DNA of 64,000 nucleotides from Terriglobales bacterium (GCA_035531375.1 DATKSZ010000014.1:23031-87030); one strand, 5' to 3'. Positions 1 to 64,000 are shown, numbered from the stretch's first letter. Notes: generated by a model from the sequence alone, not told the origin. Made by a program: numbers and translations.

Positions 1-447
1 TCCGTAGAAGGCCCGCCGGTGGCTGTAGTCGGCCAGCAGGTGGGTGGGCCCGGCGGGTTGCCAGAGATAGGCCTGCCGCGCCGCCGGGGAGGGCGCGGCG
101 CCCCCGCGCCCGCGCCCGCTGGGCAGCGTCGCCGTGACCGCCGCCGGCGCCTCCGGCGCGCGCCCGCCACCCGGCTGCGCCTGCAAATGGTCGAGGCAGG
201 AGAGCGGATAGGCGGCCAGCGTCATCGCCTCCATCCGGTTGAGCGGCGGCGTCTGCGCCTCCGGCAGCGTTTGCAGAAAGGCCTGCACGCTGTGCGCCGC
301 CGGCGCGGCCAGCGGCGCTGGCGCCGCCGCCAACGGCGATGCCGCGCCCGCGGCCGCCGGCTGCGAACGGCAGCCGGCCAGCGCCAGCCCGGCCAGCGCG
401 GCGGCGAGCGCCAGGGAAGTCCGGCGGAGGCCAAGTCGCTGCTTCAT
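1..447 (-). CDS. Lipoprotein, DUF2891-like (5' part only; continues past the left edge of the window)
   Basis: Own translation of the minus strand from ATG at 447: MKQRLGLRRTSLALAAALAGLALAGCRSQ... This shows a signal peptide plus an LAGC lipobox. It continues ...AAYPLSCLDHLQ...LLADYSHRRAFYG and stays open to position 1. There is an ATGA start/stop overlap with the upstream MFS gene. It is absent from the ORF track because no stop lies inside the window. The family name is from memory of DUF2891 N-terminal motifs and is unverified. Confidence 0.45.
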   Translation of the reverse strand, partial: MKQRLGLRRTSLALAAALAGLALAGCRSQPAAAGAASPLAAAPAPLAAPAAHSVQAFLQTLPEAQTPPLNRMEAMTLAAYPLSCLDHLQAQPGGGRAPEAPAAVTATLPSGRGRGGAAPSPAARQAYLWQPAGPTHLLADYSHRRAFYG

Positions 448-1724: not shown

Positions 1725-4700
1725 CTATTTGCCATCGGGCGGCTTCGGCACCGGCGGTTCCGAGCTGGGCAGGATGGGCCGCGCGCGCACCACCGACCAG
1801 GTCACCCCCTGGGCGGTCTCGCGCTCGCTGCGGGTGATGCGCAGCTTGCCCTGCGCCAGATACTTCAAGTGCACCTCGTCGTAGGCCAGCCCGGCCGAGG
1901 CCACCAGCTTCATGTAGTCGCCGTGCGCGGTCTCGTCCGGCGCCTCGGTGTAGCCCTGGTCCCAGGTCACCGCCGCGTTGGCGCCCGGGCCCGCCATCCC
2001 GCCCCGCCCGGGCCCGGTGGCGCCCTTCAGCGGCATGTAGATGCGGATGCCCTCCACCAGCGGCTGCTGCATGTTGTCCGGCTGGAAGGCCTGGCCCCAG
2101 CGCTGGTAGCGCGCGTTCATGCGCTCCTCCAGCGGCAGCAGCCCCGGCACCTGGCGCTCGGCGTCCACGATGCGGTCGCGCAGCGCGTAGGTCACCGCCT
2201 CCGAGTGGGTGTCGGTGGTGGTGTCGCGCTGGTAGCCCAGGCTGGTGAACCAGCCCCGCGGGATCCACCAGGTGCGGCCGTTGTTGGCCCCGTCGCGGCT
2301 CTGCACCCAGGCGCTGTACTCGCTGAAGGGCTGCACCCACTCGTGCGAGGGATAGCCGTGCGGGTTCAGGAACGCGTCCGGATTCCACTGCTGCAGCAGC
2401 AGCCGGCGCGTGCGCGACTCGGGATACACCGGGTCCACGTCGGCCTGCCCGCTGGAGACGTCCGCCGCCAGCGCCCCGTGGTAGCCCAGGTGCAGCAGGT
2501 TGTCGGGCATGATCTTGGCCTCCATCACCGACAGCTTGGCCCCGTCCGGGTTGTCAATCGGATGCAGCACCACGTTCACCTGCTTCAGGTAGGCGCGCAC
2601 CGCCGGGTCGCTCACCAGCAGCTCCGCCAGCCGCTCCACGTGGCTGGTGCTCGAAACCTCGTTGGCGTGCTGGCGCGCCGAGTAGACGATGGCCGCCTTG
2701 AGCGTGGTCTGCTTCGCCCACGAGATCAGCTTCGACGGTGAGGGCAGCATGAGGTCGGCCACCCAGATCACCTGGCCCAGGTAGCTGCGCCCCATGGAGT
2801 AGACATTGACGCCGGGGTAGGTCGCCAGCCGCGCCAGGATGGCGGCGCTCTGGTTGGGCCCGATCGGCTCCCGCCACTGCACGAAGGGGCGCCCCTGCGG
2901 GTTGAGCGGGATGGGCGCGACCGTGGCGATCTGCGGCCGCGGATGCAGCGGCGGCGCCACCCGCCAGCTCGCCAGCACGCGCCGCTCGGGGGTGCGGAAG
3001 GGCACGCCCAGCGGCCGCGGCAGTTGCAGCTCGATCGCCATGCGCCCCAGGCCGGGGTAGGCCAGCTCGTCCGGATAGAGCCCGGCGGCGTGCATCGCCT
3101 CCAGCGCGCGCAGCTCCCCCTCCGCCTGCTCCACCGTGAACATGCTGCGCTCGAGCTGCTGCCGCCCCGCCAGCTTCTCCCACGCCGCCATGTCGTAGCG
3201 CTGCGCGTCGGCCGGCAGCAGCCAGAGGAGGTCCTCCACCCCGGCCGCGCCCGCCCGCACCCGCGCCCCGATCAGCCGCGGCTGGAACGCTCCCGCCAGC
3301 ACCGGCAGGTTGCGCAGCTTGCTGTGCGCATGCCCCTGCGCGTCGGTCCAGCTCAGCCGCACCAGCGGGTTGGGCGCCGCCTTGCCGTAGAACTCGATGT
3401 GCACCTCCCCGTCCTGGCCGTCCGCGGAGGGGTGCATCACCGGGATGATGCGGCCCACGTAGTTCTCCGGCCGCCCGTTTTTCAGGTCGCCCAGCGTGTC
3501 AATGAAGGTCTCGGTGGCGTAGAAGACGTCCTCCTGCAGCGCCTCGATCGAGGAAATCCGCTCCTTGTCCACCCCGATGTTGTAGTTCGGCTCGGAGAGG
3601 TGAAAGTCCATCTTCAGCGTGTCGAACGGCGGCACGTACTCCGGCCGCAAGTTGCCGTGCGCCTGCGCCATGATGAAGCGGTAGACGCGCGGCAGCGTCA
3701 CCGTCTGGTAGTGGTCCCAGAAGCGCTCGATGTCGGTCGGGATGCGCTGGTCCAGCACCACGCGGCCGCCCTGCGCCAGGCGCACCCAGCCCGTCTCCAC
3801 CTGCACGTCCTCGTAGGAGCGGATCACCCCGCTGTAGGGCTGCATCACCGCCGCCACGGTGAAGTGGCGCGCCAGCAGCAGGCGCCCGCCGGCGTCGTAG
3901 GCGCGCACCTCGTAGGTGGGGCTGGGCGGGTCGTTGGGTGGATCGGCCAGCGCGATCTGCTCCGCCGTCTCCACCGCGGGCGCGGTGTTGATCTCGCGCA
4001 GGTGGATGTCGGCGAGCGGAATTTTGAGCTGCTTCGCCAGCACCTCGTCCACCGGATAGAGCTCCTGCATCCAGCGCGCCGGCGAGTACATGTCGCGCAG
4101 CCCGGTGGCGTCCACGTCCTTGGCCGCCTCGATCTCCAGCCGCGCCACCGGCCGGCCCGCCAGCTCGGGCTCGATCTCGTCCTCCAGCCAGCTATAGCCC
4201 TGCTTGTAGGCGTCCAGCACCTCCACCCGCGTCTGCCCCGGGTCGGCGCCGGCCTGGGTGAGGATGTCGCGCAGTTGCGCCGCCAGCCGCTGCCGCTCCT
4301 GCGGCCCCTCGCTCACGCGGGCGATGAGCGTCGCCGGCTGGCCGCGCTCGAGTTTGGGCGCGGCGCCGCGCACGTCGTTGAGCAGCGTGGTGCCCTCCCA
4401 GGGAATGTGGATGTCCTCGGTGAACACCGGCTTGCCCTGGTGGAAGGGGAACTCGGGGTTGGAGTAATGCAGGTCGGGGTTGGAGGCGCAGCACTGCGTG
4501 CCGGCGCGCAGGCTGGCCGCCTCCACCGTCGCCGGAACATGCAACTCGTCCTGGATCTGGGTGCGCACGAATCCCGCCATCTTCGGGTCCACCAGGTCGG
4601 CATAGAGCTCGGCGTGGACATGGCTCACCGGCCCCGCTTGCGCCGCGATCTGCCCCAGCCAGCGGTGCAGGAAGAACAGCCCCGCCGCCGCCTGCCCCAC

Positions 4701-10253: not shown

Positions 10254-12304
10254 GCAGACAGAACGGCCTGCCCCCCCGCCCCGGCGGCGGTCCGGCGCGG
10301 ATTGCGATTGACACCGGCGGCACCTTCACCGACTGCGTCTACCTCGCCGACGGCCGCCTGCAGGTGCTCAAGCTCTTCTCCACCCCGCAGGACGCCGGCC
10401 AGGCCATCCACCACGCCCTCGCCCAGATCGGCCCCGCCCCCGGCGCCGAGATCCGCCACGGCACCACGGTCGGCACCAACACCCTGCTGGAGCGCACCGG
10501 CGCCCGCGTCGCCTTCGTCACCACCGCCGGCTTCGAGGACACCATCGCCATCGGCCGCCAGGCCCGCCCCCGCCTCTATCAATGGTCCAACCCCGCCCCC
10601 ACCCCGCTCGCCCCCCCCGCCCTGCGCTTCGGCGTGGACGAGCGCACCCTCCCCGACGGCGCCATCCTCCGCCCCGCCTCCGCCGCCGGCCTGCGCGCCC
10701 TCTTCCAGCGCATGGCCGCCGCTCAGCCCGAGGCGGTTGCGGTCTCGCTGCTGTTCAGCTTCGCCAACCCCAAGAACGAGCGCGCCGTGGTGCGCGCCCT
10801 GGAGGAGCTGGGCGTGCCCGTCTCCGCCTCCCACCAGATCCTGCCCGAGTTTCGCGAGTACGAGCGCGGCGCCACCGTCCTCATCAACGCCTACCTCGCC
10901 CCCAAGATGGGCAGCTACCTCCTCCGCTTGCAGGCCCGCCTCGCCCAAGCCTATCCTGGCGCCCGCCTCCACGTCATGCAGTCCTCCGGCGGCATCGTCT
11001 CCGCCCCGGTGGCGGCGCGCGAGCCCGTGCGCACCATCCTTTCCGGCCCGGCCGGCGGCGTGGTCGGCGCCCACCGCCTTGCCCGCCTGGCCGGCTGCGA
11101 GCGCATCCTCACCTTCGACATGGGCGGCACCTCCACCGACGTCGCCCTAGTGGATGGCCACAGCCACGGCGGCCACCTGCGCACCACCAACGAGGCCCAG
11201 GTGATGGGCCTGCCGGTGGGCGTGCCCATGCTCGACATCCACACCGTCGGCGCCGGCGGCGGCTCGCTCGCCAGCTTCGACGGCGGCGGCGCCCTGCGCG
11301 TCGGCCCCGAGTCCGCCGGCGCCGAGCCCGGCCCCATCTGCTACGGGCGCGGCGAGCGCCCCACCGTCACCGACGCCAACCTGCTGCTCGGCCGCCTCGA
11401 CCCCGACGCCTTCCTCGGCGGCGGCCTGCGCCTGGACACCGAGCGCGCCCGCCGCCTCTTCGCCCGCGCCAAGGGCCCCCTCGCCAGCGTCGAGGTCTTC
11501 GCCGACGGCATCGTCCGCCTCGCCGAGGCCACCATGGAGAAGGCGCTGCGCATGATCTCGGTCGAGCGCGGCTTCGATCCGCGCGAATTCACCCTGGTCA
11601 GCTTCGGCGGCGCCGGCCCGCTCCACGCCTGCGCCCTCGCCGCCGGCCTGGAGATACCCCGCGTGCTGGTCCCGCAAATGCCGGGGGCGCTCTCCGCCCT
11701 CGGCATCCTCATGTCCGACATGGTCAAGGACTACTCCCGCACCGTGATGGAGCCAGTCCCCGCCGGCGGCCCGGCGGCGCCGCTGCGCGCCCGCCTCGAG
11801 GCCCACTTCCGCGCCCTCGAGGCCCGCGGCCGGCGCGAGATGCGCGCCGAGGGCCTGGACGGCGTCGGCCTGCGCTCGCTCGATCTGCGCTACGCCGGCC
11901 AGGGCTACGAACTCAACTTGGAGTGGGCCGCCGGCCACGACTTCGCCGACCGCTTTCACCAACTCCACCAGCGCCGCTACGGCTACGCCGACCCCCAGCG
12001 CCCGCTCGAAGTGGTCAATGCCCGCCTGCGCCTGGTCGCCGCCTCCGCTCCGCTCGCCTTTCCCCGCCTGCGCCTCCGCCCCGGCGACGCCCGCCACGCC
12101 CTCGCCGCCCAGCGCCGTGTCTGGTTCGACGGCCGCTTCCGCCGCGCTCCCGTCTACGCCCGCGAGCGCCTCCGCCCCGGCGACCGCTTCGCCGGCCCCG
12201 CCCTGGTCACCGAATACAGCGCCACCACCGTCGTCCCCCCGGGCTGGCGCACCCACGTGGACGCTTGGCAAAACCTGCACCTCGAAAGGACGGCGCGGCC
12301 ATGA
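10250..12304 (+). CDS. hyuA: Hydantoinase/oxoprolinase family, A subunit (HyuA-like)
   Basis: This is the in-frame part of track ORF 9731..12304. GTG 10250 overlaps the gntR stop (GTGA). ARIAIDTGGTFTDCVYL... and ...TFDMGGTSTDVALV are the two ATPase-fold phosphate motifs typical of HyuA/OplA. Confidence 0.9.
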   Translation: MSRQNGLPPRPGGGPARIAIDTGGTFTDCVYLADGRLQVLKLFSTPQDAGQAIHHALAQIGPAPGAEIRHGTTVGTNTLLERTGARVAFVTTAGFEDTIAIGRQARPRLYQWSNPAPTPLAPPALRFGVDERTLPDGAILRPASAAGLRALFQRMAAAQPEAVAVSLLFSFANPKNERAVVRALEELGVPVSASHQILPEFREYERGATVLINAYLAPKMGSYLLRLQARLAQAYPGARLHVMQSSGGIVSAPVAAREPVRTILSGPAGGVVGAHRLARLAGCERILTFDMGGTSTDVALVDGHSHGGHLRTTNEAQVMGLPVGVPMLDIHTVGAGGGSLASFDGGGALRVGPESAGAEPGPICYGRGERPTVTDANLLLGRLDPDAFLGGGLRLDTERARRLFARAKGPLASVEVFADGIVRLAEATMEKALRMISVERGFDPREFTLVSFGGAGPLHACALAAGLEIPRVLVPQMPGALSALGILMSDMVKDYSRTVMEPVPAGGPAAPLRARLEAHFRALEARGRREMRAEGLDGVGLRSLDLRYAGQGYELNLEWAAGHDFADRFHQLHQRRYGYADPQRPLEVVNARLRLVAASAPLAFPRLRLRPGDARHALAAQRRVWFDGRFRRAPVYARERLRPGDRFAGPALVTEYSATTVVPPGWRTHVDAWQNLHLERTARP

Positions 12305-53387: not shown

Positions 53388-53897
53388 CTACCGCCGCCCG
53401 GCGGCGCCGTAATGCTTCGCCAAGTAGCCGCGCACGTTGGTTGGCGCGGGCCCCAGCGCGCCTGCGGCGCGCGTCCCGCTTGTGCTCGCGCCGACTTGGG
53501 GGCCCGTGGCCCCAAGTCGGCGCTGCGCTTCGCTGGGGCCGCGCCGCATTTGTTTCCCGGGGGCGCAGACGCGCCACTGGCGCGTCTGCCCCTGCGGAAT
53601 TTCGCAACCTTTCGCGCCGATTTTGCCGGCAGGCAAAGCGGCGCGACCCCCGCGAGCGGCCAGTTCCCGCGGCGAGGCTTCCAGCCCGTTGTCCTGCATC
53701 TCGTCGAGCGTGTCCCGCCACTGGGCCAGCGTTTGCCGGGTTGCGACCACCCGCGCCAAGCCATGGCAATCCGAGCACAGCCGCACCGTGGCGGCCTTGC
53801 CCGCGCCCGCCGGCGATGGCCGGATCCGGCGGCAGCGCCGGCGCGACCGCCCGCCCAAGGCGGCGGCGAAGCCGCCGCGGGCGCGGACGCGGCGCAT
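53388..53897 (-). CDS. Small CxxCH-motif ORF (cytochrome c-like) carrying a ~220-bp palindromic repeat in frame; possibly a pseudogene
   Basis: The 169-aa ORF starts 4 nt after the upstream methyltransferase stop. ...AATVRLCSDCHGLARVVATRQTLAQWRDTLDEMQDNGLEASPRELAA is followed by a ~72-aa repeat-encoded insert, then NVRGYLAKHYGAAGRR. The two flanks together resemble a single small haem-binding domain (CxxCH...W...M...YLAK..G). No convincing signal peptide is visible, which argues for decay or a wrong start. Confidence 0.3.
   Translation of the reverse strand: MRRVRARGGFAAALGGRSRRRCRRIRPSPAGAGKAATVRLCSDCHGLARVVATRQTLAQWRDTLDEMQDNGLEASPRELAARGGRAALPAGKIGAKGCEIPQGQTRQWRVCAPGKQMRRGPSEAQRRLGATGPQVGASTSGTRAAGALGPAPTNVRGYLAKHYGAAGRR
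53439..53661. repeat. Multi-hairpin GC-rich repeat element, copy A (223 bp)
   Basis: It aligns by eye along its whole length with 63581-63858, in the same orientation. It contains at least four stem-loops: 53456-53472, 53488-53523, 53559-53592 and 53613-53645. Confidence 0.75.
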
Positions 53898-53900
53898 GGC

Positions 53901-56038
<2,138 letters not shown>

Positions 56039-56088
56039 CTAAAGCGTACACTCCATGGTATTTCCTTCCCCTCCCGCGCACCCCCCCC

Positions 56089-58830
56089 ATGCCCGCCAAC
56101 CGCGATGTCGGACCCTTCGAGGTGATCGAGCCCTTGGGCGCCGGCGGCATGGGCGAGGTCTTCAAGGCCCGCGACCGCCGCCTCAACCGCCTGGTGGCGT
56201 TGAAGTTTTTGCCCGAGGCCGCCACCCCCGCCGCCCGCGAACGCTTCCAGCGCGAGGCCACCGCCATCGCCGCCCTCAACCATCCCCACATCTGCACCCT
56301 CTTCGAGATCGGCGACGACCACGGTCGGCCCTACCTGGTGCTCGAGCTGCTCGAGGGCGAGACCTTGCGCGCCCGGCTCGCCCGCGGCCCGCTGTCGCCG
56401 GAGCAGTTGCTCGACTGGGCGGTGCAGATCGCCGACGCCCTCGACGCCGCCCACCGCCGCGGCATCCTCCACCGCGACCTCAAGCCCGACAACATCTGGG
56501 TCTCCCCCGGCGGTCATCTCAAGGTGCTCGACTTCGGCCTCGCCCGCCTCGAAGCCCCCGATCCCTCCGACGCCGCCGGCGCCACCCTCACCGACGGCCG
56601 CACCCTCACCTCGCCCGGCATGACCCTCGGCACCATCCCCTACATGTCGCCCGAGCAGGCCCGCGGCGAAACCCTCGACCCCCGCTCCGACCTGTTCAGC
56701 TTCGGCTCGGTCTTCTACGAGATGGCCTGCGGACGCCGCGCCTTCCCCGCCAGCGGTGCCGCCGACTCCATCGCCGCCATCCTCAAGGAGCAGCCCCCCC
56801 GCCTCGGACAACTCCGCCCCGAATTGCCCCTCAAATTCGACGAGGTCGCCAGCCGCTGCCTGGAGAAAGACCCCGATCTGCGCTACCAGTCTGCCGCCGA
56901 CTTGCGCAGCGACTTGAAGCGCCTCAAGCGCGAGAGCGGCACGCTCACCCCAGCCCCCGCCTCCGACCCCAGCGCGCCCGCCACGGTCGCCCTGCCCGCG
57001 CCCCCGCCCCGCCCCAGCGCCGCCCCCCTCTCCTCCGACGCCCAAGTGCTGGGCGGCCTGGTCCGCCGCCACTGGCGCTGGCCCGCGCTGGCCGCCCTGG
57101 CGCTCGTCGCCGCCGCCCTGGCCTGGTGGCGCTTCGCCCCCCGGCCCCCGGCCGCGCCCATCAACCTGACCTTCCGCCAGCTCACCTTCACCGGCCACGT
57201 GCTCGACGCCGCCATCTCCCCCGACGGCAAGTTCCTCGCCCACGTGGACCTCAACCCCGGCGGCACCTCCCTCCACCTGCTCTCCATCGCCAGCGGCAGT
57301 GACGTGCAAATCGTCCCTCCCGGCGACGGTTGTTGCGCCGCCCCCACCTTCTCCCCCGACGGCAGCGCCGTCTACTTCCAGGCCAACGATCGCCTGGAGG
57401 CGGTCCCGGTGCTCGGCGGCGCGGTGCGCCCCATCGCCAGCCACGTCTGCAGCGGCGCCGGCTTCTCCCCCGACGGCAGCCAGATCGCCTACCTCACCGC
57501 GCCCACCGCAACCAGCCAACTCATCCTCGCCCGCCCCGATGGTGCGCAGCCGCGCGTGCTGCATGAAACTGCGCCCGGTGTTGGCTACCTGTCCACTTGC
57601 TGGGGCTCTCCCGGAGCGCTTGTCCATCCCCCCGCCTGGTCGCCCGACGGCCGCCTTCTCGCCGTGGCCAAATTCGGCAATGGCGTCGGCACCCACGTCG
57701 AGACCGTCAACACCGCCGACGGCCACGTCGCCGATGATCTCGCCCCCGACCTCAACTTTGGCGGGGCCGACCTGAACTGGCTGCCCGATGGCAGCGGCCT
57801 GGTCCTCACCGCCGCCATGCCCGCCTCGGCGGTCCCCCAAGCCTGGCTGCTGCCCTATCCCAGCGGTCCGGCCAAGGCGCTCACCAACGACCTGCAGGGC
57901 TACTCCAGCGCCAGCCTCTCCGCCCAGGGCGATCTCGTCCTCCTCCACAACGCTCCCCAATACTCCATCTGGGCACAAGCCTCCCCCCAGGCCGAACTGC
58001 GCCAGTTGCCCGGCGGCGGCTCCAACCAGGATGGTTTCAACGGCCTTGCCTGGACGCCCCAAGACGCTCTGGTCACCACCCGCACCTTCGGCGGCAAGGT
58101 GCAACTCTGGTCGGACAACGCCGACGGCACCGCCGCCCATCCCCTGCTGCCCGACGCGCCCTCGAGTCTCAGCGGTCCGGTGGTGGCGCCGAACGGACAG
58201 ATCCTCTTTTCCGCCGGCACCAAAGCCAATGATGTCTGGCGCGTCAATGCCGACGGCACCGGCCTCATCCGCTTCCAGCCCGCCGGCCCGGCCAGCCAAA
58301 ACTCACTGCCCACCCTGGTGGACGGCGGCCAAGCCGTGGTCTACCTGCACCTCCTGGGCAACCGTCAAACCCTTTGGCAGGCGCCACTCGGCGGCGGCCC
58401 CGCCCACCAGATTTGGTCCGGCAACGTCTTTGTGGACGGCAACCCCGCCTCCCCCGACGGCAACCGCCTCTTCGCCGAAACCATGGGTCCCGGCCAGTCC
58501 CACGTCGCCGCCATCATCCAACTCGACGGTGGTCAAGCCCAAGTCCATACCATCGCCCTCGACCACGCCACCATGCAGGGGCCCTACAATTGGACCCCCG
58601 ACGGCCGCGCCATCACCTACATCGTCAACCACGGCACCACCGACAACCTCTGGGCCTTTCCCCTCGACGGCCGCAAGCCCTACCCCCTCACCCACTTCAC
58701 CGACCTGCGCATCGCCGCCTACGCCTTCTCCCACGACGGCCGCCTCGCCCTCAGCCGCGGCAGCCCCAACACCGACGCCGTCCTCGCCACCGGCCTCGCC
58801 CCGGCGAACTCCGCCAGCCATGCCCACTAA
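56089..58830 (+). CDS. Ser/Thr protein kinase with TM segment and C-terminal TolB-like beta-propeller repeats
   Basis: ATG 56089. The Hanks motifs are LGAGGMGEVFKA, VALKFL, HRDLKPDN, DFGLA and MSPEQ. After a Pro-rich linker and one TM (WPALAALALVAAALAWW), repeated SPDG-type propeller blades follow. Confidence 0.9.
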   Translation: MPANRDVGPFEVIEPLGAGGMGEVFKARDRRLNRLVALKFLPEAATPAARERFQREATAIAALNHPHICTLFEIGDDHGRPYLVLELLEGETLRARLARGPLSPEQLLDWAVQIADALDAAHRRGILHRDLKPDNIWVSPGGHLKVLDFGLARLEAPDPSDAAGATLTDGRTLTSPGMTLGTIPYMSPEQARGETLDPRSDLFSFGSVFYEMACGRRAFPASGAADSIAAILKEQPPRLGQLRPELPLKFDEVASRCLEKDPDLRYQSAADLRSDLKRLKRESGTLTPAPASDPSAPATVALPAPPPRPSAAPLSSDAQVLGGLVRRHWRWPALAALALVAAALAWWRFAPRPPAAPINLTFRQLTFTGHVLDAAISPDGKFLAHVDLNPGGTSLHLLSIASGSDVQIVPPGDGCCAAPTFSPDGSAVYFQANDRLEAVPVLGGAVRPIASHVCSGAGFSPDGSQIAYLTAPTATSQLILARPDGAQPRVLHETAPGVGYLSTCWGSPGALVHPPAWSPDGRLLAVAKFGNGVGTHVETVNTADGHVADDLAPDLNFGGADLNWLPDGSGLVLTAAMPASAVPQAWLLPYPSGPAKALTNDLQGYSSASLSAQGDLVLLHNAPQYSIWAQASPQAELRQLPGGGSNQDGFNGLAWTPQDALVTTRTFGGKVQLWSDNADGTAAHPLLPDAPSSLSGPVVAPNGQILFSAGTKANDVWRVNADGTGLIRFQPAGPASQNSLPTLVDGGQAVVYLHLLGNRQTLWQAPLGGGPAHQIWSGNVFVDGNPASPDGNRLFAETMGPGQSHVAAIIQLDGGQAQVHTIALDHATMQGPYNWTPDGRAITYIVNHGTTDNLWAFPLDGRKPYPLTHFTDLRIAAYAFSHDGRLALSRGSPNTDAVLATGLAPANSASHAH

Positions 58831-61576
58831 CCGCGACATCGGCCCCTTCGAGGTGCTGGAAAAGCTGGGCGCCGGCGGCATGGGCGTGGTCTTCCAGGCC
58901 CGCGACCGCCGCCTCAATCGCCTGGTGGCGCTCAAGCTCCTGCCCGAGGCCTCCAGCGACGCCGCCCGCGAGCGCTTTCAGCGCGAGGCCCTCGCCATCG
59001 CCGCCCTCAACCATCCCAACATCTGCACTTTGTACGAGGCCGGCGAGCACGCCGGCCAGCCCTACCTGGTGATGGAGCTGCTCGAGGGCGAAACCCTCCA
59101 CGACCGCCTCCGCCGCGGCCCCGTGCCCCTGCCCCAGCTCGTGCAATGGGGCGCGGAGATCGCCGACGCCCTGCAGGCCGCCCACGCCAAGGGCATCCTC
59201 CACCGCGACCTCAAGCCCGGCAACATCTTCATCACCCAGCGCGGCAGCGCCAAGGTGCTCGACTTCGGCCTGGCGCAGTTCGCCCTGGCCGGCGCCGCCG
59301 AGGCCGACGCCGCCACCCTCGCCGGCACCGCCCCCGGCGCCGCCGCCGGCAAGCAGCCGCTCACCACCCCCGGGGCCACCCTCGGCACCGCCGCCTACAT
59401 GTCGCCCGAGCAGGCCCGCGGCGAATTGCTCGACGCCCGCAGCGACCTCTTCAGCCTGGGCGTGGTGCTCTACGAGATGGCCGGCGGCCAGCCGCCCTTT
59501 CAAGGCCGCACCTCCGCCGATCTTTCCGCCGCCATCCTCATGCGCATCCCGCCGCCGCCCAGCTCGCTGCGCCCCGAGATCCCGCCCCGGCTCGACGACA
59601 TCATCGCCCAGTGCCTGGAGAAAGACCCCGATCTGCGCTTCCAGTCCGCCGCCGAGCTGCGCGTCGGCCTCCGCCGGCTGCTGGGAACCTCCTCCTCGGG
59701 TGCCCCCTCGTCCAGCCCCAACGTTCTCTCCACCCCCGGCCTGCCACCGCCCTCCACGCCCGCGCCCGCCTCCGCCACCGCGGTCGCCCCCGCGCCCCGC
59801 CCCCGCTGGGCCCTGCCCGCCGCCGCCTTCGTGGTGCTCGCGCTGGCCGCGCTGGCCTGGTGGCGTTGGCAGCCCCGCCCCGCCCCGCCGCCAGCCGCCG
59901 CGGCCAACCTCAGCTTCCGCCCCCTGACCTTCAGCGGGCAGGTGCAAGACGCCGCCATCTCTCCCGACGGCAAGTTCCTCGCCCACGTGGATGCCTCCCC
60001 GCAAGGCACCTCCCTCCATCTGCTCTCGGTCGCCAACGGTAGCGACGTCGAGATCATGCCCCCCGCCCCCGGCTGCTGCCAATCGCCTTCGTTCTCCCCC
60101 GACGGCAGCACCGTCTATTTTGTCGAGGACAAGACCCTGAAAGCCATTCCTGTGCTCGGCGGCGCGGTGCGCACCATCGCCAATGAAGTCTGCAGCGGCG
60201 CCGGCGTCTCCCCCGACGGCAAGCAGATCGCCTACCTGGCGGCCCGGCCCGCCGGCGACGAGCTGACCGTCGCGCTCGCCGATGGCTCCCAGGCCCACGT
60301 GCGCAGCGATCCCAGCCCCTCCGGCTACGACAGCCGCTGCTGGATCAACGGCCCCCTGTATCCCGACACCCCCGCCTGGTCCCCCGACGGCCGCTGGATC
60401 GCGGTCGAGCGCAGCGGCGCCGGCACCGACGTCACCGACCACGTCGTGCTGGTCGGCGCCGCCGACGGCCGCCTCCAGGAGCTGGGCCCCGACCTCCCCC
60501 GGTCCGCCTCCGACTTGGCCTGGCGGCCCGATGGCCGCGGCGTGCTGGTCACCGACTCCATCCCCAGCACCTCGCCCTCGCAGATTCGCGAGATCGCCTA
60601 CCCCGGCGGCCAACTCCTACAACTGACCCACGACCTCCAGGGCTTTGACCGCGTCACCATCGCCTCCCAGGCTGGCGGCGCCATAGCGCTGGTTCACAGC
60701 AACCCGCAGTACTCCGTCTGGCGCCAGGCCATCCCCGGCGGTGCCTTCGAGCCGTTGCCCGGCGGTGGCGCCGACCAAGATGGATTTTTCGGCTTGGCCT
60801 GGACACCCCAAGGCCAGCTCGTCAGCGTGCGCTTCCCCGCCGGTCAAAGCCAACTCTGGCTGGAGGGCGCCGGCCCGCCCCAACCCATCCCGGTCGGCAA
60901 CCTCCCCACCTTTTTCATGGACCCCAACGTCTCTCCCAGCGGGCAAATTGTTTTTCAGGGCCTCAACCCTGCCGGAACCTGGAACATCTGGCGCGTGGAC
61001 CTGCAAGGGACCGGCCTGGCCAATCTCACCCCCGGCCTCAACGCCATCAACCCGGTCCTGGTGGAGGGCGGCAAATCGGTGGCCTTTCTGAACATGTACG
61101 CCGCCGGCAACGCCTCCCATCAGCGCCTCTGGATCGTGCCGCTGGCGGGCGGAGCCCCCCGCAAGACCTCGCCGATCGAGCTCTATACCAATTTCGGGCT
61201 TCCCCTGCCCGACCCAGAACGCGTCTTGGCGCCCGCCATGGTGCCCAACAGCAGCGTCGGCGACGTGGTCGAGATTAGCCTCAACGGCGCCGCGCCCATC
61301 GTCGTGAAGCCGCGCGAGTCCCGCGGCAGCTTCGCCGCCCCCTACGCCACCACCCCCGACGGGCGCGCCCTCGCCGGGGTCATCACCGATGGCAATACCG
61401 GCAACATCTGGGCCGCTCCGCTCGACGGCGGCCCGCTCTACGCCATCACCCATTTCACCGACCTCACGATCGCCGCCTACGCCTTCTCCCGCGACGGCCG
61501 CCTGGCCGTCAGCCGCGGCTCCCAGAACAGCGACGCCGTGGTCGCCACCGGCCTCGCCCCCGCTGGGCATCGGTAA
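58820..61576 (+). CDS. Ser/Thr protein kinase with TM segment and C-terminal TolB-like beta-propeller repeats (paralog of the upstream gene)
   Basis: ATG 58820 overlaps the upstream gene by 11 nt. The architecture is the same and the termini are near-identical: [39 protein letters not shown] versus [39 protein letters not shown], and [23 protein letters not shown] versus FTDLRIAAYAFSHDGRLALSRGS. Confidence 0.9.
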
Positions 61577-61604
61577 TCGCCGCCGCTCGCGGTATCATGC
61601 TGCC

Positions 61605-63566
61605 ATGGCGGACACGCTCCCGGCCCTCTTTCCCCCCTCCCCCGCGTTTTCCGCCCGCGCCCACGTCTCTAGCCGCGCCGCCTACGATGAACTCCGCCAG
61701 CGCGCCCTCGCCGACCCCCAAGCCTTCTGGAGCGAAAAGGCCCGCGCCGAGCTCCACTGGTTCCAGCCCTTCCACACCGCCCTCGACTGGCAGCCTCCCT
61801 TCGCCCAGTGGTTCGTCGGCGGCAAGATCAACGCCAGCTACAACTGCCTCGACCGCCACCTCGAGGGCTGGCGCCGCAACAAGGCCGCCCTCATCTGGGA
61901 GGGCGAGAACTTCGAGCAGCGCATCCTCACCTACCAGGACCTCCATCGCCGCGTCTCCAAGCTCGCCAACGCCCTGAAACGGCTGGGCTACACCGCCGGC
62001 GACCGGGCCATCATTTATTTGCCCATGATCCCCGAGGCCGCCGTCGCCATGCTGGCCTGCGCCCGTCTCGGCATCATCCACTCCGTCGTCTTCGCCGGCT
62101 TCTCCTCCGAAGCCCTGCGCACCCGCATGGACGACCTCGAGGCCCAACTGGTCATCACCGCCGACGGCGGCCGCCGCCGCGGCCGCGAGGTCCCGCTCAA
62201 GCAGAACGTGGACGCCGCCCTGGAACACTGCCCCGGCGTGCGCCACGCCCTCGTCTACCGCCATCTCGGCAGCGCCGTCGCCATGCGCCCCGGCCGCGAC
62301 CTCGACTGGACCGAACTGCTGCGCGGCGAGAGCGAAACCTGCCCCGCCACCCCGCTCGACAGCGAGCATCCCCTCTTCGTGCTCTACACCAGCGGCACCA
62401 CCGGCAAGCCCAAGGGCGTGGTCCACTCCACCGCCGGCTACCTGCTCCAGGTGCAGGCCACCATGCGCTGGGTCTTCGACCTGCGCGACGAGGACGTCTA
62501 CTGGTGCACCGCCGACATCGGCTGGGTCACCGGACACAGCTACATCATCTACGGCCCGCTCGCCGCCGGCGCCACCACCCTCATGTACGAGGGCGCCCCC
62601 GACTGGCCCGAGCCCGACCGCTTCTGGCGCCTGATCGCCAAGCACCGCGTCAACCTCTTCTACACCTCGCCCACCGCCATCCGCAGCTTCATCCGCCACG
62701 GCGACGCCTTCCCCGCCCGCCACGACCTTTCGAGCTTGCGGCTGCTGGGTTCGGTGGGCGAGCCCATCAACCCCTCCGCCTGGCGCTGGTACCACGAGGT
62801 GATCGGCAACGGCCGCTGCCCCATCGTGGACACCTGGTGGCAGACCGAGACCGGCAGCATCCTGCTCTCCCCCGTCCCCGGCGCGGTGGCCACCAAGCCC
62901 GGCTCCGCCACCCTGCCCCTGCCCGGCATTGACCCCGAAATCGTGGACCTCCAGGGCCAGCCCGTCCCCACCGGCCAGCAGGGCTACCTCATCTTGCGCA
63001 CCCCCTGGCCCTCGATGCTGCGCGGCCTCTACCGCGACCCCGAGCGCTACCAGGAGAGCTACTGGTCGCGCTACCCCGGCGCCTATTTCACCGGCGACGC
63101 CGCCCACCGCGACGCCGACGGCTACTACTGGATCCTCGGCCGCGTGGACGACGTCATCAACGTCAGCGGCCACCGCATGAGCACCATGGAGGTCGAGTCG
63201 GTGATGGTGCGCCACCCCGCCGTCGCCGAGGCCGCCGCCGTCGGCCGCCCCGACCAGCTCAAGGGCCAGGCCCTGGTCGTCTTTTGCACCCTCAAGGGCG
63301 CCGCCGCCCCCAGCGCCGAGCTCGAGGCCGAATTGCGCCAGTGGGTCGCCACCGAGATCGGCGCCTTCGCCCGCCCCGACGAGGTCCGCCTGGTCGAGGG
63401 CCTGCCCAAGACCCGCAGCGGCAAGATCATGCGCCGCCTGCTGCGCGAGCTGGTCGCCACCGCCCAGGTCCTGGGCGACACCACCACGCTCGAGGACTAC
63501 TCCGTCCTGCTCAACCTCAGCGGCGAGGGCAAGGACGAAGAAGAGCTGCTCGGCAAAGACGGCTAG
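61605..63566 (+). CDS. acs: Acetyl-CoA synthetase (AMP-forming)
   Basis: Track ORF trimmed to ATG 61605. [51 protein letters not shown] and [12 protein letters not shown] are all present. Confidence 0.95.
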
Positions 63567-63580
63567 ACTACAGGCCATCG

Positions 63581-63858
63581 GGTGGTGGGCGCGGGCCCCT
63601 GCGCGGCTGCGCCGCGCGTCCCGCTTGTGCTCACGCCGGCTTGGGGGCCCCGCGGCCCCAAGCCGGCGCTGCGCTGCTTCACTGCCCGGGGGGGCCGCGC
63701 CGATTCGCTTCCCGGGGGCGCAGACGCGCCCCGGGCGCGTCTGCCCCTGCGGAATTACGACCCCCCCAGAGCCCGAGGCGGGCTCTGGGGGCCCCGGTTC
63801 GCAGCCTTTCGCGCCGATTTTGCCAGCAGGCAAAGCGGCGCGACCCCCGCGATCGGCC
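63581..63858. repeat. Multi-hairpin GC-rich repeat element, copy B (278 bp, with one extra hairpin module)
   Basis: This is the same element as 53439-53661, lying intergenic 15 nt after the acs stop. An extra perfect 13-bp-stem hairpin lies at 63763-63791 (CCCCCAGAGCCCG-agg-CGGGCTCTGGGGG). Confidence 0.75.
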
Positions 63859-64000
63859 GGAGGCTGCAGCAAAGGCACGCGCCGCTCCAAGCCGTTGAGC
63901 CCCTCGGCCTAAAGCAGCACGTTGGCGTCGAGGGCGACCCTCACCGCTCGTGCATCTCGTCCCGGCTCTACTCGCAGCGCAGCGCCGCCAGCGGGTCCAC

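Follow-up and report, generated by a model that had tools for sequence, protein, structure and literature searches.

A mosaic, hairpin-built repeat family with REP/BIME-like features in an uncultured Terriglobales population

The repeat found downstream of acs in the window (the whole 64-kb stretch of DNA that was analysed, with ~70% G+C), referred to here as copy B, and its relative, copy A, are both members of a large family of repeats from an uncultured Terriglobales (Acidobacteriota) population of ~70% G+C. Copy B is probably a high-copy, non-autonomous repeat built of hairpins, the acidobacterial counterpart of REP, BIME and REPIN sequences, which is moved as single-stranded DNA by a REP-associated tyrosine transposase (RAYT) of the Y1 HUH type. 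We read the family as a REP/BIME-like non-autonomous element on the grounds of an exact empty site, sharp element ends, an NNGG motif at the insertion point and a RAYT gene that abuts one of the copies. The parts of both copies and the neighbouring genes are collected in Table 1.

Table 1 Features of the two repeat copies and of the genes around them, in window positions
Feature	Position	Strand	Basis
Small CxxCH ORF (cytochrome-c-like; lipoprotein-type in relative), split in frame by copy A, 73 codons	53388..53897	-	Product minus 53437-53655 aligns to P0125 with no gap where copy A was removed
Copy A, 219 nt, H1-H2-linker-H3L-H4, no X	53437..53655	+	Empty site in L189 gives the exact ends
acs, acetyl-CoA synthetase, 653 aa, upstream of copy B	61602..63566	+	Pfam ACAS_N, AMP-binding, AMP-binding_C
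Copy B, mosaic repeat, 271 nt, H1-H2-long linker-H3L-X-H4	63582..63852	+	Alignment to copy A, module mapping, family 5' and 3' boundary profiles anchored on the copy A empty site
5' end (GTGG-TGGGCGCGGGCCCC) and hairpin region H1	63582..63637	+	5' consensus WTGG-T[G/T]GGCGCGGGCCCC kept in 81 copies, upstream sequence not; folding
Hairpin H2, 13-bp perfect arms 63634-63646 / 63656-63668	63634..63668	+	Inverted-repeat search
Linker, long allele, +10 nt vs copy A	63669..63708	+	A/B alignment; allele also in L097, L137, L143, L158
Hairpin H3, long form, arms 63712-63731 / 63733-63752	63709..63754	+	Module mapping, inverted-repeat search; two pairs changed on both sides across copies; short or absent in other copies
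X cassette, 42 nt, TACGAC-CCCCCAGAGCCCG-AGG-CGGGCTCTGGGGG-CCCCGG, stem-loop 63763-63791	63756..63797	+	Absent in copy A; same junction in ~26 other copies; four stem pairs compensatory
Hairpin H4 and 3' end (...GCAAAGCGGCGCGACCCCCGCGA)	63805..63852	+	Module mapping, inverted repeat; 3' end kept in at least 72 copies
3' flank TCGG, instance of the NNGG target motif, outside the element	63853..63856	+	G at fourth base after ...GCGA in 72/72, at third in 62%; bases pre-exist in the empty site
Convergent MacB/FtsX-type permease, 3' end; 863 aa, runs off the window	63968..64000	-	Stop codon at ~63968, gene table of contig L001

The window holds two copies, and besides copy A, located near 53.4-53.7 kb on the same strand, no further relatives of the copy B region were detected within the 64 kb. 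The original prediction was that copy B, relative to copy A, carries an additional hairpin of roughly 50 nt between the third and fourth stem-loops. Its placement was correct, and the stem, CCCCCAGAGCCCG-agg-CGGGCTCTGGGGG, is perfect as described, with 13-nt arms that are 100% complementary and spaced by 3 nt (an equivalent inverted repeat appeared in none of 100 shuffles); the added unit, X, measures 42 nt and not ~50. The linker, described at 63670-63705 as more diverged, does differ from that of copy A and is longer, but it is not private to copy B and represents a second linker allele (GCTGCTTCACTGCC...) which is common to other copies (examples in Table 1). Otherwise, copies A and B are near-identical module for module in the pairwise alignment. 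Their H2 stems differ by a compensatory A-T to G-C change, and GGGTTGG/CCAACCC variants of this stem occur in other genomes. Folding compared with dinucleotide shuffles gave z = -5.0 for copy B and -7.2 for copy A. As copy B, including the X hairpin, was recovered with the same sequence in three separate assemblies, it is not an assembly artefact. The 13th pair of the X stem (C63763-G63791) is private to copy B; among 13 aligned X-bearing copies, 11 others of the X1 type have A/A at this position and a 12-bp stem.

An 18-mer from the last hairpin was scanned over GTDB genomes and returned mostly chance matches, the true copies being those of three Terriglobales MAGs (JBOGKQ01, JBOGKK01 and DATKRG01) and of contig L061, which is labelled Streptosporangiaceae, has 70% G+C and carries one copy with an H1 100% identical to that of copy A. 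In the JGI metagenomes, a 36-nt degenerate H1 pattern identified at least 118 family loci; most of those listed come from the sample series Ga0307372-4, which also holds the acs locus (L003). Module mapping with blastn-short gave ~200 arrays among the matches listed, counted over contigs and not per genome. No presence/absence polymorphism was found among overlapping sampled contigs, all 31 of 31 orthologous locus pairs being equal in length; thus there is no direct sign of recent movement.

The exact boundaries of the element came from copy A, which is flanked by a methyltransferase gene and a tRNA-Glu gene, both on the minus strand, and is housed in an ORF of 169 codons that is accepted by gene callers. 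A gene for an SDR protein lies ~400 nt from this copy. When copy A is removed from the ORF, a 96-aa protein is obtained, and the one relative that it has in the database, P0125 of another assembly (117 aa), is 66% identical (E = 2e-46). At the protein junction the sequence without copy A reads ...DNGLEASPRELA followed by AVRGYLAKYYG, against ...ELA followed by NVRGYLAKHYG in P0125. On L189, the contig of P0125, the 12 nt found on each side of copy A directly abut, GCCGCGCACG being immediately followed by GCGGCCAGTTC, with flank identities of 53/60 and 58/60; at the filled site the same two sequences enclose the element (GCCGCGCACG, then TTGGTTGG...CCCCCGCGA, then GCGGCCAGTTC). Thus, copy A is an insert of exactly 219 nt, in frame, in which the WTGG is owned by the element and the NNGG is a pre-existing target. 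No target-site duplication was present in this one filled/empty pair. A second empty site was sought at the acs-permease spacer by a protein search with the Acs C-terminus, and the matches, at most 70% identical and on short fragments, included no usable syntenic relative. The boundary rule derived from the empty site of copy A places copy B at 63582-63852, with TCGG as its target.

Across the family, the termini are sharp and run from WTGG-TKGGCGCGGGCCCC at the 5' end to CCCCCGCGA at the 3' end. The 5' side is kept up to WTGG-T[G/T]GGCGCG and not further (81 copies), and the base mix of the head that precedes the first stem is GT[G 51% / T 43% / A 6%]G, giving a 5' end of WTGG-T[G/T/A]GGCGCG. 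On the 3' side, ...CCCCCGCGA is followed by NNGG in 72 copies, with G at position 4 in 72/72 and at position 3 in 62%. Flank and element therefore meet as flank followed by the WTGGTKGGCGCG-hairpin at the 5' junction and as ...CCCCCGCGA followed by NNGG at the 3' junction. Where copies are joined head to tail, GCGA is followed by TTGG-TGGGCGCG, such that the next copy's own TTGG is the target. Insertion is directly 5' of NNGG and without duplication, the motif being taken from 72 copies and its pre-existence from one empty site. Subterminal hairpins are present at both ends, namely H1 at 4-6 nt from the 5' end, and H4 together with a CGCG-ACCCC-CGCG stem at the 3' end.

The view of the repeat as a modular mosaic comparable to BIMEs was borne out by the catalogue of module combinations, which contains optional and independently varying units. 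The module order is fixed (H1-H2-linker-H3-(X)-H4), and ~100 distinct module strings were counted among the matches listed; the commonest of these were H1-H2-LK-H3S-H4 (25) and H1-H2-LK-H3L-H4 (13, the copy A type), and others had X, missed H3 or formed (H1-H2)n arrays. The element is roughly 75-80% G+C and 140-340 nt long, and the 89 single full-length copies fall into length classes of ~140 nt (no H3), 195 nt (short H3), 215 nt (long H3), and 237 and 260 nt (the latter two forms plus X). Its hairpins measure 34 nt (H2), 42 nt (X), ~38 nt (H4) and 32 nt, the last being an optional hairpin (AGCCGCCCCGCTGTAACGGCGCGGGGCGGCAT) within the 3' arm of H1 that was found in 13 copies. H1-H2 units also form head-to-tail arrays, in which the period is ~97 nt and the number of H1 units reaches about nine (L148). 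The linker, which exists as two alleles in the family, is complementary to the 5' end (11 nt, 91%) and to the 3' end (21 nt, 86%). The inverted repeats suggest a 16-nt REP-like motif that occurs three times in forward-reverse-forward arrangement, but a search for it at 3 mismatches did no better than chance in such G+C-rich DNA (45 matches vs 40 expected).

X sits at a single junction, between GGAAT and TTCGC, in about a quarter of the copies. Its consensus, TACGACC[A/C]CCCC-stem-loop-stem-GGGG[A/G]CCCCGG (42 nt), was found at exactly this junction in ~26 other, mostly distinct copies. Among the matches listed, 101 distinct copies spanned H3 to H4, of which 51 had the short H3 and 29 the long H3 without X, 14 had the long H3 with X (one of them with two X units) and 7 the short H3 with X. 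Five further copies beyond these 21 X-bearing ones carried a variant-stem X at the standard junction, a different stem type stood at the standard site in L104 and L107, and an X-X tandem was identified in L137. X is therefore a unit that can be gained or lost, and the possibility raised at the outset, that the extra hairpin is a one-off insertion, is excluded by the 21/101 copies with X at the same junction and by the five variants. All four combinations of X and H3 form are present with no association (Fisher p = 0.52), and on the flanking backbone the distance among X-bearing copies is not significantly smaller (mean 0.067 vs 0.087, p = 0.23, 74 copies).

The inner stem of X is the most variable part of the element and keeps its complementarity, with variants such as GAGCCCG/CGGGCTC, GAACCCG/CGGGTTC, GGACCCG/CGGGTCC, AAGCCGC/GCGGCTT and AAAGCCG/CGGCTTT. 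In the alignment of 13 copies, four X pairs and two H3 pairs were changed on both sides, and 93.5% of cells were paired, vs 29-51% when the partners were slid; for the covariation of the three hairpins, neither any of 500 shuffles nor any slid control reached the observed value. X-like hairpins were also detected in the linker of copies from other MAGs, in L006 (as two tandem units) and L020, and one was found alone (L049). To the question whether the X hairpin occurs on its own elsewhere, the 1.37 Mb of family-bearing loci gave one solo instance, in another Terriglobales MAG. Of the 28 X-like hairpins found there, the other 27 lie within elements; 26 of the 28 share the element orientation, and the pattern search over the 1.37 Mb revealed no solo X hairpin in the source population. 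X is, on this count, a facultative module and not a generally dispersed repeat. In L143, the X hairpin is deleted between the flanking ACCCC repeats.

The candidate transposase was identified on L061, where an ORF at ~2190-2690 (+) has a copy of the repeat on the opposite strand within ~30 nt of its 3' end, and the two intergenic spacers that follow, one behind a HAD hydrolase gene and the other behind a PIN/Phd pair, contain a further copy each. The ORF reached 89.5 bits (cut-off 80) with NCBIfam NF047646 REP_Tyr_transpos (equivalog) and 39 bits with Pfam Y1_Tnp PF01797; with the IS200 TnpA model it scored 33.8 bits, below the cut-off of 55. In the PDB it is most similar to E. coli TnpA-REP (4er8); the HUH motif is present as HVH, and its WQDESYD corresponds to WQPRFWE of 4er8 in the alignment. 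Its database relatives, named RayT by JGI and NCBI, do not exceed 55% identity. The RAYT reading frame stays open through the adjacent copy, to 358 codons. The same locus was found again in the JGI sample series at 99.9% identity (L120). No other RAYT was detected in the 1.37 Mb of family-bearing DNA or in the window, using an HMM that was built from 61 sequences, namely 60 RAYT homologues and the L061 protein. The tie between L061 and the window genome is at the community level only, and apart from copies A and B its modules are absent from the window. On the 5' side of the RAYT gene, the end of an IS21 (IstB) lies ~12 nt upstream of the start codon, so that flanking by the repeat on both sides is not visible and a copy is seen at the 3' side only. 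Small palindromes adjoin or overlap the 3' ends of two homologous RAYTs (54-55% identical), one of which (L188) has a similar palindrome upstream as well; being at most 55% identical and having different small palindromes, these homologues provide no test of cognate pairing with the present family.

Arrays at the same locus mostly point the same way, with a single orientation in 32 of the 38 loci that have several. The orientation is correlated with G/C skew both within plus-strand and within minus-strand genes (Mann-Whitney p = 0.001 and 0.0015, respectively), with no difference in gene-strand fraction; the window's two copies run opposite to the skew trend. Such co-orientation and skew may reflect replication-coupled, strand-specific insertion, which would give this pattern. 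In the orientation chosen here the target lies 3' of the element, as a mirror image of IS608. An analogy with the target geometry of IS608 would make the bottom strand the active one, but the skew data point the other way. We propose that a Y1 HUH RAYT mobilises the folded single-stranded element, and that the cassettes and H1-H2 units would be reshuffled among copies by recombination, gene conversion, the same enzyme or slippage. The pairing of the stems may be kept because the enzyme needs the fold, or perhaps the arms of the palindromes correct each other.

Other explanations of X and of the family as a whole were weighed against this. X could be a tiny, self-mobile REP-like unit that repeatedly inserted in the larger element, as a nested parasite and not a shuffled module. 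Its CCACCCC...GGGG(A/G)CCCCGG clamps are constant around differing inner stems at the H3/H4 junction, in the linker and alone, and the second stem type at the standard site, the tandem and the independence from H3 form and backbone would fit such mobility; but nearly all X-like hairpins are confined to elements in the element orientation, the insertion boundaries of the main type are all identical, as inheritance and recombination predict, and neither an enzyme nor a target motif is assignable to X, and we find this reading unlikely. It is rather unlikely, too, that X and the H1-internal hairpin are exchangeable cassettes cut and pasted at fixed hairpin feet, that is, nested mini-elements site-specific for a carrier mobilised by the RAYT, with the hypervariability of the stems arising from a dedicated process and not from drift and selection. 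As for the family itself, its size of 140-340 nt, its high copy number and intergenic placement could be those of a conventional MITE that descends from an insertion sequence with a DDE transposase, such as the IS4/IS5 and IS21 types whose genes are found nearby (a DDE_Tnp_1 gene ~5 kb downstream of copy B in L001, and the IS21 IstB gene beside the RAYT in L061). A MITE defined by terminal inverted repeats and target-site duplication is rejected on the exact empty site, which has no duplication; long terminal inverted repeats are missing too, the ends sharing only a short G+C-rich similarity, and the DDE genes have no adjacent copy, which leaves this origin highly improbable.

The position of copy B raised the question of a role in the acs transcript. 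It had been noted to lie 15 nt past the acs stop codon (63566) with convergent genes on either side, and the family-defined boundaries, which put its start at 63582, confirm this; the acs-permease spacer measures 401 nt. The absence of a U-tract after it was equally upheld, as no terminator-like hairpin with a T-run exists on either strand in 63400-64000, and the reading as an intrinsic (Rho-independent) terminator was rejected for this reason. The element might still be primarily an RNA device, acting as a terminator without U-tract, as a block to 3' exonucleases that stabilises mRNA or as a small-RNA family, with X tuning its function past acs. Its very stable folds (z = -5 and -7), the stem pairing kept by compensatory changes and the sense placement of copy B next to acs would agree with this, and an aid to Rho-dependent termination is among the effects reported for REPs (PMC2817692). 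Gene context was derived from a crude GC3-based gene caller that recovers the known window genes, and among the matches listed, the 81 arrays with both neighbours within 600 nt comprised 22 convergent, 21 divergent, 18 co-directional sense and 20 co-directional antisense cases, so that divergent neighbours are as frequent as convergent ones and sense as frequent as antisense. None of 103 arrays among the matches listed was within a called coding segment; placement is predominantly extragenic, with the exception of copy A, which is antisense within the coding sequence of a small ORF. At gathering thresholds, Rfam 15 covariance models matched only tRNA-Glu over the window, and in 63400-64000 they matched nothing even at E <= 1. 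RNAalifold of the whole element in 36 copies returned inconsistent structures with a better energy on the complementary strand (-121 vs -98), and no strand-specific RNA structure can be argued from it. The orientation, unbiased with respect to neighbouring genes, gives no sign of selection for a transcript-level role, and sharp insertion boundaries with a target motif are properties of DNA. An RNA device is thus quite improbable, and we do not favour terminator or mRNA stabiliser as the selected role. At acs, the element is most likely a neutral passenger, with nothing to indicate more than that; an effect on acs 3'-end formation or mRNA stability, if any, would be a by-product, by analogy with what was reported for REPs.

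The REP/BIME-like reading can be set beside several known systems. The BOX elements of Streptococcus pneumoniae (boxA-boxB(n)-boxC) are modular, intergenic and of strong predicted structure, with a variable number of internal modules. The present family is likewise a modular interspersed repeat with a variable internal module, and differs in that BOX elements have a low-G+C Gram-positive host, no known RAYT link and unrelated sequences. REPINs have a length of about 100 nt, and the motifs of IS608/ISDra2 are TTAC/TCAA. With IS200/IS605 elements (IS608, ISDra2) and their miniature derivatives (PMC6006769), the family shares the lack of target duplication, the subterminal hairpins, an orientation tied to strand composition and insertion beside a short motif resembling the element's own terminal tetranucleotide; unlike them, its target is mirror-imaged (on the 3' side), its nearby transposase scores as RAYT and not as IS200 TnpA, and there is no tnpB. 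The in-frame, 73-codon insertion of copy A that left its ORF open recalls the Rickettsia palindromic elements as they are mentioned in PMC3733652, but a coding insertion is a single case in this family, as the extragenic placement of its arrays shows.

The closest likeness is to the REP/BIME sequences of enterobacteria, Pseudomonas, Stenotrophomonas and Xanthomonas and their RAYT/REPtron systems, for which RAYTs, REPs, BIMEs and the GT[AG]G head have been described (PMC2817692). Both consist of G+C-rich imperfect palindromes, mostly extragenic and, for this family, probably high in copy number, that are arranged in mosaics; in both, a basic module is amplified in tandem and complementary changes keep the stems paired. 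The head beside the first stem, GT[G/T/A]G in this family, resembles GT[A/G]G, and a RAYT gene passing the REP_Tyr_transpos model has a copy located at its 3' end or overlapping with it. PMC3733652 accepts GTGG and degenerate heads as REP variants and does not list GTTG. The family differs in its unit, a fixed order of four or five different hairpins over 140-340 nt, whereas a REP is one unit of 20-40 nt found in doublets or clusters of alternating orientation; its host is an acidobacterium, and its RAYT is, as seen, flanked on one side. Mobilisation by RAYTs has been proposed for REP, BIME and REPIN alike (PMC2817692, PMC3116915). The REPINs of Pseudomonas fluorescens SBW25 resemble the family in that they are non-autonomous, exceed a single REP in length, form long foldbacks and are proposed to depend on a single-copy RAYT for their movement (PMC3116915, PMC3337134); a REPIN, however, consists of two inverted REPs and a short spacer, whereas in this family the termini lack a clear inverted relationship and enclose a long, structured interior that varies by cassette.

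In acidobacteria, RAYT-like genes flanked by repeated elements have been described before, and the TIRYT genes and TIRtrons, including a repeated family in Koribacter versatilis, belong to the same phylum (PMC3733652). As described there, they too combine a RAYT-like Y1 transposase with flanking repeats that exceed classical REPs in length and of which some are self-complementary and multicopy. Visual inspection of the X cassette did not reveal the GGGGWSAS motif given for several TIRtron repeats; the present family appears to have a much higher copy number, and a mosaic or cassette structure is not part of the TIRtron description in PMC3733652.

The kind of element is an ordinary one (REP/BIME type), here in a new lineage, and such repeats are little described in this phylum, the REP/BIME/REPIN-RAYT systems having been worked out almost entirely in Proteobacteria. 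Foldbacks of this type are prone to ORF miscalls, as with the 169-aa 'gene' at 53388-53897 and the 358-codon RAYT frame in L061, and they will fragment the assembly of MAGs from soil acidobacteria. Recombination among copies can be followed by internal markers, namely X, the hairpin inside H1, the two forms of H3 and the H1-H2 arrays. With an exact empty site, an NNGG target, no duplication and an adjacent RAYT, the family offers a clean natural substrate for testing RAYT-driven movement of repeats.

Within the window, copy A of the mosaic REP-like hairpin repeat lies inside a small gene with a CxxCH motif, contributing 73 codons to the called ORF with the frame kept. A 117-aa database relative of this ORF, P0125, has a signal peptide of the lipoprotein type, which is missing from the product in the window, where the alignment leaves a 21-residue gap. 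Because of this absence, the gene may already be in decay.

The optional cassette X, a 42-nt hairpin unit between H3 and H4, has lost its hairpin in one copy of metagenome locus L143 (~3850-3900). The flanks of the cassette (TACGACCACCCC-GG) are retained there, and the hairpin was apparently deleted between the ACCCC repeats on its two sides. The sole solo X-like hairpin was detected in L049 (1100-1230, minus strand), in a spacer without backbone modules, and it adjoins another perfect 10-bp hairpin, GGAACTCCGC-GCA-GCGGAGTTCC. A second small hairpin type is also nested in the repeat; its loops are of the CTGTA(G/A)C type, some of them including GTAG, and its stems are G+C-rich. Within H1 its site is constant, GCTTGTG|GCTCGCGCC, and in one case it is nested within H2.

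Contig L061, which carries a gene for a REP-associated tyrosine transposase (RAYT) and three repeat copies, was binned as 'Streptosporangiaceae bacterium'. It is probably mis-binned, since its sequence is 99.9% identical to a contig of the sample series containing the Terriglobales acs locus and bears the Terriglobales repeat. An IS21-type element is inserted upstream of the RAYT gene, ~12 nt from its start codon, and this insertion may have separated RAYT from its promoter and from the upstream repeat.

Most long direct repeats of the window stem from two tandem paralogous Ser/Thr kinase genes (70–83% DNA identity), with both C-terminal parts being of the PD40/Tricorn type (beta-propeller-like). 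Since the Rfam tRNA model scored below its gathering threshold at the ARAGORN tRNA-Asn call, where the sequence is very rich in G+C, this call is probably a false positive.

Features located in the window and in other contigs
Feature	Location	Strand	Details
CxxCH (cytochrome-c-like) gene	window 53388-53897	-	169-aa ORF; interrupted in frame by copy A (53437-53655)
Ser/Thr kinase, first	window 56026-58830	+	913 aa
Ser/Thr kinase, second	window 58818-61576	+	918 aa
tRNA-Asn call	window 314-399	-	86 nt; ARAGORN
IS21-type element	L061 1254-2200; same locus in L120		IstB; terminal repeats ending ...TTGACA
H1-H2 arrays	L148 3839-4671; L124 1855-2438; L143 3842-4393; L102 about 11054-11281		head-to-tail
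Second nested hairpin type	L061 4850-4925; L045 3090-3120; 13 metagenome copies (e.g. L107 4300-4335)		

Among the family-bearing metagenome loci (L069-L186), kilobase-spaced copies of one contig share a single orientation in 32 of 38 loci, and copy orientation is also correlated with the G/C skew of the strand, irrespective of gene strand; copies A and B of the window have the minority orientation. The head-to-tail H1-H2 arrays, with a period of 88–98 nt and a maximum of about nine H1 units, finish with an ordinary H3-H4 tail and recall the tandem amplification of BIME-2.
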